A DNA stretch of 64,000 nt from Octopus vulgaris (taxonomy: Eukaryota), in assembly GCA_951406725.2 (NCBI GenBank), contig OX597815.1, forward strand, positions 104,470,001-104,534,000, given 5' to 3'. Position 1 is the stretch's first letter; each line of letters starts with the position of its first letter. Position numbers and translations under genes: made by a program. Below, piece after piece: positions 7,855-61,967 of this stretch. Under the pieces are notes generated by a model. That model was given only the letters and a program-made list of their open reading frames with translations, made no database searches and had not been told where the DNA came from.

Positions 7855-8392
7855 ATATAAAATTTAATAAGGGTAGAAATTGATATTAATCAATTAAAAC
7901 CAGTGGCCTAGCATATTAAAAAAATTCGAAGATTAAAATATTTTTACATACAAAATTTAAAGGACTGACCACTAAAAGTAATGGTTAACATGCTAGATAT
8001 AGACGTCAAATCACTATTTTCCACAAAGAATATGTTCTCAAATAAAAATCCAGCATGAACCAAAGTATTAAAAATAAGCAAGACAAATGAAAATATACGA
8101 AATAAAAATGATTACCTATGTACCGATCAGTTTCGATTCTTATTATCCTCGCATGTGGATACCCGCAATCTCCTCAGCATAGTTTGTCATATAGAAATAC
8201 AATTTGCAAACTGATTGGTACATAGGTAATCATTTTTATTTCGTATATTTTCATTTGTCTTGCTTATTTTTAATACTTTGGTTCGTGCTGGATTTTTATT
8301 TGAGAACATATTCTTTGTGGAAAATAGCGATTTGACGTCTATATCTAGCATGTTGACCGTTCACTTTTAGTGGTCAGTCCTTTAAATTTTGT

Positions 8393-9554: not shown

Positions 9555-9990
9555 GGTACAGGACACCAAAAAAAAAAAAAAAACGTTGAACACAATGAGA
9601 AACGAAAACATTGAAAAGAAAAACATGGAAATTGACTTTTTTTTCAAACAATGAAAAAACAGAGTACAAGACATACAACACAAGGAATATTCCCTTTCTT
9701 CAGTTGTCCCTGTTTCAGCTACTCCGCGTTTCGAAGGTAAGGACAAGACGCGACTTCGTTGAAACAATCCTTCCCGCAAAGCAAATTAAATAAAATTTGG
9801 GATTTTTTGCGGAGGGGTAAAAGTGGTAACAAGAACAGGACAGTGAGAACAAAACAAGACCGTAAAATCAATACGAATAAAAACAGTAAAAGACAGGACA
9901 AGGAGAATAACACAGTAAAAACAAACGTTGAGGGTTGTTAAGTCGAGACAATGAAAAAATTATTTTGAACGCATTGAGAAGACGGCGACG
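9555..9990 (-). mobile_element. PLE-like 3' end carrying a rearranged hammerhead
   Basis: Homologous to 60625-60890 (cctgtt.ttgttacca..aaattttatt; 3' end cctgt.c.catatatgcat); minus-strand RRRLL..KIIF..TLN resembles a GIY-YIG ORF end. Confidence 0.7.
9692..9752 (-). ncRNA. Non-circularly permuted hammerhead ribozyme candidate
   Basis: cgcgTC-ttgtcc..cctt(c)-GAAA-cgcg..ggacaa-CTGAAGA-aagg; all three stems pair. Confidence 0.75.
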
Positions 9991-38559: not shown

Positions 38560-38950
38560 GATGAGGAATTATGTACATTATTTACAATGGATGGTTAGGC
38601 GTCCTCACTTTGTTTGTTGTTACCACAATGCTTCAGCTGATTTACTCCCCAGCCTTCATCAGGTGTTCTGATGGAATTTCAAATATTACCCTTTACTTGG
38701 CTAATGGGGTACTCTGTTCTCATTCCTGAGGTATTCTTTTATGCTGATGTTATTTTTTTGCTGACATTATTTCCCAAGTCCCTACCTGGGACTGAACTCA
38801 GAATCCGAGGATTAATAGCCTGTGCTCTTATCCACTATGCTATATGCCTGAAACATTGTGGTAACAACAAACAAGGTATATGCTATATGCCCTAAATGTG
38901 GTAACAACAAACAAGGTGAGGATACCTATCCATCCATTGTAAATAATGTA
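38560..38950 (-). mobile_element. tRNA-headed, hammerhead-containing short retroelement with inverted tail copy
   Basis: tRNA-like head 38848-38785 (tagcatagtgg A box, gagttcagtccc B box), HHR 38665-38624, tail 38624-38560, inverted tail copies 38849-38950. Confidence 0.7.
38624..38665 (-). ncRNA. Type I minimal hammerhead (decayed)
   Basis: cac-CTGATGA-a-ggctg..cagct-GAAG-ca-TT-gtg; the inverted copy at 38849 keeps GAAA. Confidence 0.6.
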
Positions 38951-41249: not shown

Positions 41250-41497
41250 ATATATATATTAGAGAGAATGAAATAACAAAATCAAGGCTGTGAGGAGTTT
41301 TCAGGACATTTATAAGGAAATAGTCTTGCAGCTGTTTCAGAGAAGGTGTGAGAAGACTAAATATAACTTTCTCACACCATCTCTGATGAAGGGATATCCA
41401 TATTATCCCAGAAACAGCTGTAAGACTATTTCCTTATAAATGTCCTGAAAACTCCTCACAGCCTTGGCTTTGTTATTATATTCTCTCTAATATATAT
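41250..41497 (+). mobile_element. PLE-type terminal repeat with tail-to-tail inverted copy
   Basis: Arms 41250-41354 and 41369-41497; (TA)n flanks; intact HHR in the right arm. Confidence 0.85.
41380..41425 (+). ncRNA. Type I minimal hammerhead ribozyme
   Basis: tct-CTGATGA-a-gggata(tccatat)tatccc-a-GAAA-cagctg-TA-aga; palindromic stem/loop III ACAGCTGT. Confidence 0.85.
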
Positions 41498-60143: not shown

Positions 60144-60502
60144 TGTGAAGGTGGCTCATCTGAAAAAGCAATAGGTATGAATAAAAATTGATAGTGTAGA
60201 GAGATCATTTTATTTGTGGCATCTACCCTCTCCTCCCCGATCCATTTTGTGAAGTGGTTAGTGATTGGAAGGACATCATTAATACAGTAGATTAGGTAAA
60301 ATAAAGGAGTGATCTTCCAACAGATTTCTAACCTCATATCTATAATTTTCTGAGCAACTCTCTTAATGGTTATATCTTAAATGCCTGATTTCTATCCAAC
60401 TTTCTACACATGCACCTTTCTCTCTGTTACGAAAACAAAAGAGTTGAATGCATAAACAACGAGAGAAACAAATGGAAAACAGAACAAGTAACATAATGAA
60501 CG

Positions 60503-60565
60503 ATCCTTCATCAGTTGTCAGTTGTCCATCTACTCCTCATTTCCAGTATTGAATGACAATATGAG
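60503..60565 (-). ncRNA. Non-circularly permuted hammerhead candidate (left arm)
   Basis: ctcaTA-ttgtca..GAAA-tgag..tgacaa-CTGATGA; stems I and III perfect, stem II decayed. Confidence 0.65.
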
Positions 60566-60715
60566 TCTTTGAAGGGCAATGGCTCCCATAAACCAAAATA
60601 AAATAAAATACAGTGGAGGATGTATATCTCCTTTGACCTGTTTTTGTTACCAACTTTGACCTTCTGCAAATCCTAAATTTTATTTTGGTTTACGGGAGCA
60701 ACTGCCCTTCGAAGA

Positions 60716-60778
60716 CTCATATTGTTGTTCCATGCTCGAAATGAGGAATAGATGGGCAACTGACAACTGATGAAGGGT
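60716..60778 (+). ncRNA. Non-circularly permuted hammerhead candidate (right arm)
   Basis: ctcaTA-ttgttg..gctc-GAAA-tgag..tgacaa-CTGATGA-a-gggt. Confidence 0.7.
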
Positions 60779-60938
60779 CGTTCCTTACGTTACTTGTCCT
60801 GTTTTCCATTTGTTTCTCTCATTGTTTATGTATTCAACTCTTTTGTTTGCGTATTTCATGTTGTTTGCGGTTTGTGACGCCCTGTTCTCATATATGCATA
60901 TATATATATATGTGTGTATGTGTGTACATATACATATT

Positions 60939-61100
60939 TATTGGGTGGGTGCATAATTATTGTGGCTTTTTTTCAACAAATTTTATTCAACAAAAGCAAT
61001 AACAACATGTAACAAAAACATCTTTAAATGATTATTCTGGAACATATTCACCATCTACTTCAATTACTGCTTCCCATTTGCTTGGCAGATGGTCAGACCA
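60939..61100 (-). mobile_element. Mariner 3' end (TIR plus last codons)
   Basis: Minus strand DHLPSKWEAVIEVDGEYVPE*; TIR tattgggtgggtgcataattattg. Confidence 0.8.
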
Positions 61101-61256
61101 TCATTTAAAGATGTTTTTGTTAAATATTGTTATTGTTTATGTTGAATAAAATTTGCTGGAAAAAAGCCACAATAATTATGCATCCACCCAATAAATATGT
61201 ATATGTACACACATACACACATATATATATGCATATATGAGAACAGGACATCACAT

Positions 61257-61967
61257 ATCTTGAAATACTAAACAGTAAATTTATTTAAAAAATCGCCATT
61301 AGCTTCAACCACACCCTCCAGACGACTTTGGAATCTCCTGCAACTCTTCTGGATGGTCTCCTTGTTTAAGTTGGTGAATGCTGTCATAATCCTTGCCATC
61401 AGTTCATCTTTGGTGTTACAAGGAGTTTTGTTGGTCTCTCACTCAACTGTGCCACATACATAATAATCAAGGGAGTTTCAGTCTGGTGGGTTAAGTGATC
61501 AGATGTTAGGGGTGGTGTGGTCACAGAAATTGTCTGAGAGCCGTATCTGGGTTTTCTTGCTTGTCTTCCAGCAGCCACCCTCTTGACCCAGGGCAACACT
61601 ATCTCTTCCAGGCACTTGATGTAGAACTTCGTGTTGAGTCTGAGGTATGTGGGAAGATAAATGGAGGCATAACATCGCCATCACTAGTGATCACTCCAAA
61701 CACCTTGATGTTGACTGGATGTTTGATTTTTATCACTCTTGGTACATGTCTTCAGATTGCATATTGGAACTTCTGGCCCAAATGCCAAGCAGTAAAGCAT
61801 GTTGTTTCCAAATTTATGGCAGAGTGAATTATGTCATGGAGCTGTTTCTCTCTCAGATGGTGCCCAACCTACCCTACTATACTGTGTAGTCAACAAAATC
61901 AAAACCAAACAATGTGCATGCACAAAATTAAAATATAAAATGGCGACAATTTACCCATCACACCCTG
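61257..61967 (-). mobile_element. Decayed maT/DD37D-like Tc1-mariner element
   Basis: TA-cagggtgtgatggg TIR at 61967; NSPD*NPLDYYVCGTVE..KDELMARI..RRFQSRLEGVVEANG; 3' TIR missing. Confidence 0.75.

Follow-up and report, generated by a model that had tools for sequence, protein, structure and literature searches.

A head-to-head pair of PLE-type repeats in the octopus genome carries a predicted split-core hammerhead ribozyme, a fold probably common to Naiad elements

In this study, we show that an inverted duplication in a stretch of Octopus vulgaris DNA (64,000 nt, contig OX597815.1, positions 104,470,001 to 104,534,000; hereafter the window) is an ordinary head-to-head PLE-type insertion. 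The explanation that we consider probable, with a fair degree of doubt left, is that the locus consists of two head-to-head copies, both 5'-truncated, of a repeat (family A) that is ~760 nt long, has no ORF and shows PLE anatomy, and the 3' part of which is predicted to form a self-cleaving hammerhead with a split core. To this explanation belongs, at the same joint probability, a modelled strand order that would run, 5' to 3', from the stem II 5' strand and the helix X 5' strand through a cleavage block (stem III 3' strand, UH, stem I 3' strand) and a G block (stem II 3' strand, GAAA, stem III 5' strand) to the helix X 3' strand and, last, the stem I 5' strand with CUGAnGA. As modelled, the fold is a non-circular SGC hammerhead whose ends have been joined and whose chain has been opened between A9 and G10.1. 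Judged from sequence, the ribozyme is probably a new hammerhead topology that is common to Naiad elements. The parts of the locus, and two further copies of the fold in the window, are the following.

60428-60610, minus strand: left copy, inverted and 5'-truncated, without the last ~45 nt (tail)
60508-60585, minus strand: left-arm ribozyme copy, with CUGAUGA at 60514-60508, GAAA at 60543-60540 and the predicted cut between 60560 and 60559
60611-60620, minus strand: small inverted fragment of the family-A repeat at the head-to-head junction (by eye)
60621-60895, plus strand: right copy, a 5'-truncated family-A repeat that reaches the family 3' end, followed by (TA)n/(TG)n (boundaries by eye against the family majority)
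60696-60700, plus strand: stem II 5' strand GAGCA (G10.1 first), upstream of the cleavage block
60703-60707, plus strand: helix X 5' strand, partner of 60754-60758
60716-60727, plus strand: cleavage block, with stem III 3' strand CUCA, U16.1 (60720), A17 (60721) and stem I 3' strand UUGUUG
60721/60722, plus strand: predicted cut of the right arm
60733-60745, plus strand: G block, with stem II 3' strand UGCUC, GAAA (60738-60741) and stem III 5' strand UGAG
60754-60758, plus strand: helix X 3' strand
60761-60773, plus strand: stem I 5' strand UGACAA and core CUGAUGA (60767-60773), the chain leaving the ribozyme after A9
60854-60895, plus strand: ~45-nt tail, right arm only
9685-9781, minus strand: family-B copy of the split-core fold, with stems II GAAGG/CCUUC, III CGCG/CGCG and I UUGUCC/GGACAA
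18985-19058, minus strand: decayed family-F copy of the split-core fold, unrelated in sequence, with GAAA changed to AAAA

The original prediction of an inverted duplication of ~178 bp was accurate, the arms (60428-60604 and 60677-60853) being 177 nt each, 90% complementary and separated by a spacer of 72 nt. Its label of tail-to-tail was mistaken: the left copy lies on the minus and the right copy on the plus strand, so that the truncated 5' ends meet, the 3' ends point outward and the predicted ribozymes face away from the centre, a geometry that is named head-to-head and is the usual form in PLE (PMC3846280). Compared with the family-A majority over 177 columns, the left arm has 15 differences and the right arm 12, with 4 common to both, and the arms differ from each other at 18, which fits with one old insertion event. 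The tail on the right arm alone resembles the 30-40 bp tail described at one end of PLE insertions (PMC8557442). A second fold-back (60873-61032 and 61100-61255; 131-nt arms, 95%) takes in an inverted copy of the family-A tail and the end of a neighbouring element. At 61268-61830 on the minus strand, frameshifted frames have, by their motifs, the look of the C-terminal half of a Tc1/mariner transposase, and an AT-rich long inverted repeat at 8032-8309 is probably a MITE, its match to Rfam MIR8562 being far under the gathering score.

It had been claimed that both arms contain a scrambled hammerhead. This is so in that the cleavage, GAAA and CUGAUGA blocks follow each other in S-G-C order in each arm; it is not so for stem II, which is broken in the left arm (C11.1 changed to G, plus two mismatches; duplex energy +0.1 kcal/mol), and the sequence of this copy suggests that it is likely dead. 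In the Rfam scan of the window, no hammerhead family appears among the 150 of 236 matches listed, which are microsatellite and hairpin noise only. The core elements CUGAnGA, GAAA and UH are present in the right arm, and they are conserved in the majority sequences of families A, B and N as well as in family F. Their order is none of the circular ones (CGS, GSC and SCG, types I, II and III); it is that of type SGC, in which stem II would directly follow CUGAnGA. Here the 5' strand of stem II is instead found ~25 nt upstream of the predicted cleavage site. The earlier pairing of gggu with gcuc thus gives way to the upstream GAGCA, which GCUC prefers with five Watson-Crick pairs (-6.2 vs -2.2 kcal/mol). 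A fourth helix, X, extends stem III and joins the 3' side of the stem II 5' strand to the 5' side of the stem I 5' strand, with both-side changes in 4 of its 6 pairs. The two arms had also been thought to reconstruct an intact ancestor in combination, the left one supplying stem I and the right one stem II. The left-arm UUGUCA/UGACAA does pair perfectly, but the majority form of stem I is UUGUCG/CGACAA, and since the right arm alone forms all four helices, its stem I with two G-U pairs included, no combination of arms is needed. UGACAA is common to both arms, and its partner lost the CpG one way in the left and another way in the right, the left-arm version being, by its sequence, an apparent product of CpG decay.

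The four helices were assessed in 47 of the 51 copies returned by a core-requiring pattern, four being left out; conservation of the core among these copies is not independent, since the pattern demanded core-like letters. Under the four-helix model 92.1% of cells are paired, both-side changes occur in 13 of 22 pairs and all four helices covary, while none of 500 shuffles reaches the score and slid partners give 30-56%; the covarying cells derive from a handful of subfamily changes rather than from 47 independent events. Covariation of the three core helices I, II and III is thus seen in the alignment, and the descriptor agrees with it. When applied to 1.51 Mb, the descriptor found 77 S-G-C cores, 25 of them with the upstream stem II and helix X (3 and 0 in three shuffles). 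That the family-A ribozyme is instead an ordinary type SGC, with an extra A after A9, stem II formed by GGGU/GCUC and the upstream pairing as an alternative inhibitory fold, was our own first reading, dropped once the upstream partner was seen, and we now regard it as unlikely, although it keeps the best standing among the alternatives. A weak downstream stem II, 4 bp long and rich in G-U, does persist in families A and B and beats column shuffles; its first four pairs are standard in 41-45 of the 47 copies, one of them with a both-side change. An unpaired base at the stem II 5' end is common in PLE hammerheads (PMC4209133), and SGC ribozymes have been validated in vitro (PMC10085705). Against this stands the direct comparison in the same 47 copies, in which the upstream stem is 91% paired with 47 both-side cells and a score of 0.47, and the downstream stem 73% paired with 17 both-side cells and a score of 0.27, its slid controls already reaching 65-71%. 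In the majorities (30 copies per family) the upstream stem reads GAGCA/UGCUC (A), GAAGG/CCUUC (B) and GACAC/GUGUC (N), Watson-Crick in five of five pairs each, and the best downstream partner gives two Watson-Crick plus two G-U pairs in A and B, where it is 2.3 to 4 kcal/mol weaker, and fails in N. The duplex energies of four intact examples, upstream/downstream, are -6.2/-2.2, -5.7/-3.4, -8.3/-3.0 and -8.1/+0.7 kcal/mol. A downstream stem II with at least four Watson-Crick pairs occurs in 0 of the 77 cores, and none was seen by eye in the Acropora, Pomphorhynchus and Eulimnadia Naiads, within the portion of the published consensus set used here (PMC8557442).

The split-core fold belongs to several repeat families. 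In the genome, which is 2.8 Gb and microsatellite-rich, 3158 first-look candidates were found for the right arm, and a family-A 30-mer has 335 exact matches vs 0 for its reversed control; the repeat is therefore not a product of chance. The full family-A unit is ~710 nt plus (TA)n (~760 nt), has no ORF, contains an intron-like segment (GTAAGT ... pyrimidine-tract-CAG; by eye) and is often preceded by a partial copy of its own 3' end (by eye). Family B, related to A, has 5480 candidates and a unit of ~800 nt; partial tandems occur in both families, and further subfamilies were seen with 274 exact matches (reversed control 0). The family-B copy of the window has compensatory stems, and its cleavage site is GUC. 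Family F, uncovered by the descriptor, is nearly unrelated in sequence (stem II GGCUG/CAGCC, helix X CCGGAUC/GAUCCGG) and is young: its best 40 matches are 96-100% identical, a 30-mer has 1620 exact matches, and at one locus (L429, G000 C6:85539.7-85545.8 kb) ~7.5 units stand in an array with an 830-bp period and 97-100% identity. Family N represents the Naiad remnants of this genome (380 exact matches of the motif, control 0), and no BLAST similarity of families A and B to its ribozyme region was detected. Contigs of four sequencing runs contain the repeat; none spans the locus. At four other loci (L145, L152, L155 and L158), fold-back junctions lie inside the ribozyme and use the self-complementarity of its stems.

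The proposed link between the scrambled ribozyme and PLE retrotransposition stands as far as the family-A anatomy and the occurrence of the same fold 3' of Naiad RT are concerned; it is indirect, family A having no ORF of its own. The related idea that the rearranged hammerhead might mark a clade was largely right, and the clade is Naiad. At 17 of 30 loci, 2 of them seeds, the family-N ribozyme lies 3' of the RT C-terminus on the same strand, and it does so at 6 of 18 more diverged RT loci and at 4 of 7 longer ones, which overlap the earlier sets. The family-N RT piece P0002 matches RVT_1 below the cut-off, and in its best long relatives GIY-YIG is N-terminal and RT C-terminal, so that family N has the Naiad layout. 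One locus, L424, matches P0005 from EN to RT in order and has no ribozyme match; EN, RT and ribozyme were found together at none of the family-N loci examined. One repeat of the window matches the published Octopus Naiad consensus by eye.

Naiads have been described as lacking canonical hammerheads, with some marked HHR_core or half_core (PMC8557442). We judged the published Naiad 3' ends by eye, having reached them via two core words (60 of 62 and 23 of 23 places), and what follows holds for that portion of the PMC8557442 supplement. Of 54 consensus sequences, 8 have the whole split-core layout, namely three from Acropora, Morbakka 2, Pomphorhynchus, Eulimnadia and two from Octopus, which together represent four phyla. 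It is partial in the Euprymna Naiad, and in Naiad_Esco stems I, III and X are present but stem II is poor. The 3' ends of Naiad_Adux, Naiad-1_Skow, Naiad-4_Dst and Naiad_Ppla showed no clear fold, and several other entries no such layout. Six entries (a Pristionchus, Nippostrongylus 2 and 3, Haemonchus, Heligmosomoides and one further) read as type CSG with block C intact, a type previously known from two metagenome sequences only. The further CSG-like entry has an extra U after A9. It is likely that the split-core fold at this locus was inherited from Naiad PLEs.

The 5' ends of genomic copies bear on whether the predicted cut is made. For family A we took approximately the first 90 of the 335 copies that match the 30-mer over the C block and its 3' flank; two pairs among them are not independent, and some far-upstream values reflect subfamily divergence and not true ends. 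Of these BLAST-defined 5' ends, 24 fall at +1 to +20 from the predicted cut vs 2 at -20 to -1 (Fisher p=5e-5 among copies at risk). In family F (n=30) the corresponding numbers are 8 at -3 to +20 vs 0 at -30 to -5. Such a pile-up is what would be expected if cleaved RNA is copied. The family-A peak is not at 0; 15 of the 24 ends lie at +9 to +11, coinciding with AT microhomology to (TA)n, which suggests that the peak is partly shaped by that microhomology.

It may be asked whether the motif is a hammerhead-derived RNA element that no longer cuts and is recognised by the PLE RT, the pile-up arising from RT stalling or microhomology joining. The offset of the peak from 0 would suit this idea, as would the slowness that PLE hammerheads can have in vitro (PMC4209133) and the predicted ground state of the monomer, a long hairpin of stem III and helix X with stems I and II open. 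However, CUGAnGA, GAAA and UH are kept while the stems change, in three sequence-unrelated families and, by eye, in Naiads of four phyla. An RT that reached +9 would have stripped off every 3' partner strand beforehand; the AT-rich sequence immediately 5' of the cut could serve microhomology equally well, yet 5' ends almost never fall there; and the ends of L433, L442, L443 and L439 lie at the cut or at most 3 nt from it, as do those of inverted partners that end at unit positions 533 and 534. We therefore rate a non-cutting element as improbable, marginally more so than an ordinary type SGC.

With regard to the mobile element itself, family A has the anatomy of a PLE-type insertion: 5' truncation, partial tandems, inverted partner, one-sided tail and (TA)n target. 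An inverted, 5'-truncated partner at the 5' junction was found in 11 of 90 copies, so that the fold-back of this locus is routine. Three head-to-head junctions join family-A or family-B copies to other PLE families (L004, L022 and L181), an anecdotal hint of shared machinery. That the repeat is a LINE-dependent SINE or a satellite with a captured ribozyme, its fold-back made by DNA-level inversion, would suit the absence of any ORF linked to A, B or F in the samples examined, but it is the least probable alternative and very doubtful in view of this anatomy, the intron-like segment, the occurrence of this fold on Naiad RT elements and the three junctions with other PLE families.

The RT plus GIY-YIG ORF between pLTRs that an autonomous PLE would have is not present in family A. 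According to the original prediction, long copies that link to no ORF would count against it, and in family A this is what we find, its ~760-nt units being ORF-less. No sense-linked ORF was found in 90 family-A copies with 1.5-3.5 kb of upstream DNA, and no sense-linked RT or GIY-YIG ORF for A and B among 30 GIY-YIG loci and 30 and 20 RT loci; pieces of A or B lie near 4 of the 30 GIY-YIG loci, the ribozyme-bearing ones in antisense. A search with the family 5' segment yielded no autonomous partner, and two pairs of family-F copies ~5 kb apart have no ORF between them. The scored Naiad RT matches are all in short open frames of at most ~300 codons, yet family F is young. We rejected a PLE fragment beside L022 as the family's own ORF, because the split-core motif is absent from the young intact PLE families examined (with frames of 775 aa, 753 aa and ~1200 aa, and the 3' part of a 781-aa family). 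A 4.5-kb pair on C3, also considered, is a segmental duplication. Retrozyme traits are seen in part: A and B form partial tandems and F an array of ORF-less units with a hammerhead each, and the hammerhead is not of type I. Family A is likely a non-autonomous PLE or a retrozyme.

We propose that tandem transcripts would be cut at the ribozyme of each copy, and that the template then reverse-transcribed would be the 3' product, a unit-length RNA or a circular one, with a PLE RT plus GIY-YIG enzyme supplied in trans and a nick in (TA)n as the starting point. Copying would stop at the cleaved 5' end or ~10 nt inside it, and two cDNAs primed at both ends of one break may be joined at their truncated ends to give the fold-back. 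A read-through RNA of the present locus would form an arm-to-arm hairpin of -267 kcal/mol, and this pairing makes ribozyme activity at the locus itself unlikely.

The ribozyme could act in a dimeric form, in which two copies would complete each other's cores by swapping their stem II 5' strands and their stem I 5' strands with CUGAnGA, giving a twofold dimer. A helix measures ~2.8 A per base pair, and an unpaired base spans at most 6-7 A. The linkers between stem III and helix X are 0-3 nt in the Eulimnadia, Pomphorhynchus and Acropora sequences, and by such helix-length estimates the far end of III plus X would fall short of the distal ends of stems I and II, whereas the swapped dimer would close at any length, from which we infer a dimer. 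In family A the linkers are 8 nt and a monomer is possible as well. On this model the chances of dimer action in family A are about even; the dimer is more probable in the relatives with 0-3 nt linkers, in some of which we consider it likely. Dimer action has been proposed for other PLE hammerheads (PMC4209133), and is reportedly also the subject of Lunse et al. (2017).

Eckert et al. (2023; PMC10085705) divide the hammerhead into blocks S, G and C, assume that CUGAnGA is joined to its stems, and arrive at six orders. Their non-circular forms come from metatranscriptomes and metagenomes, with a single GCS candidate in the genome of a known organism, in the sections of that paper on which we draw. 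The present fold is similar to their SGC and CSG types in having all core nucleotides, the S-G-C order (SGC) and a short linker between the 3' strands of stems I and II, and its helix X equals their helix 'I'. It differs from them in that block C is split, the chain starting at G10.1 and ending after A9, and in that there are thousands of copies in an animal genome. An opening between A9 and G10.1 contradicts the block assumption as set out in those sections, and in open-licence PMC and bioRxiv we found no experimental precedent for it. Nor did that open-licence literature yield any description of split-core hammerheads, or of non-circular ones within PLEs. Like Naiads (PMC8557442), the families have (TA)n targets, 5' truncation, partial tandems, an inverted 5'-truncated partner and a one-sided tail. 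Unlike Naiads, A, B and F have no ORF, and A and B have no detectable sequence likeness to the Naiad ribozyme region. They also resemble animal non-LTR retrozymes (bioRxiv 10.64898/2026.07.22.740005), which are ORF-less tandem units with one hammerhead each and have been proposed to be non-autonomous PLEs. The available part of that preprint has type I models only, whereas the units described here, 760-830 nt long, contain an intron-like segment and a split core in permuted order. As in known PLE hammerheads, the site lies near the PLE 3' end and dimer action in tandem transcripts is proposed; those hammerheads dimerise via a palindromic stem III, and the dimer proposed here would swap the stem I-core and stem II strands (PMC4209133).

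If this reading is true, the CUGAnGA strand need not be continuous with stem II, which would be a topology beyond the six of 2023, and non-circularly permuted ribozymes would move from anonymous environmental RNAs to animal genomes, where their copies would number thousands. The spread of Naiads was believed to proceed without hammerheads; judged by sequence, what had been called 'half cores' look like complete ribozymes, invisible to canonical descriptors. The 5'-end pile-up would be genomic evidence on the question whether PLE ribozymes set the end of the RT template, and a self-assembling dimer would account for those SGC examples whose connectivity Eckert et al. were unable to reconcile with the crystal structure. 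A wider proposal is that a class of non-circularly permuted hammerheads has been overlooked in the Naiad PLEs of various animal phyla (nematodes with CSG; cnidarians, an acanthocephalan, a crustacean and cephalopods with a split core as the seventh topology), that the split-core form acts as a strand-swapped twofold dimer cutting only transcripts with two terminal repeats, and that octopus-type genomes hold thousands of ORF-less, retrozyme-like descendants, some of them young; we are evenly divided on whether it holds in full. The near-identical young copies of family F would be good material for a cleavage test, with the L429 array as the best.

The searches also brought up young PLEs. A very young PLE at L142 and L143 (G000 C1:38.876-38.885 Mb; C3:5.853-5.863 Mb) forms a 4271-bp tandem, has more than 100 near-identical copies and contains an intact RT-GIY-YIG frame of 775 codons, with a frame of 454 codons upstream that overlaps it. 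Another three young PLE families, with frames of 781 aa, 753 aa and up to 1200 codons, were seen at L171, L176, L278, L279 and L412-L421; two of these families have type I hammerhead-like cores starting with UUGA. In the window itself, 41377-41430 on the plus strand holds a canonical minimal type I PLE hammerhead with a palindromic stem III (family C, 2711 candidates), and decayed look-alikes of it lie near 38662 and 54927 on the minus strand.
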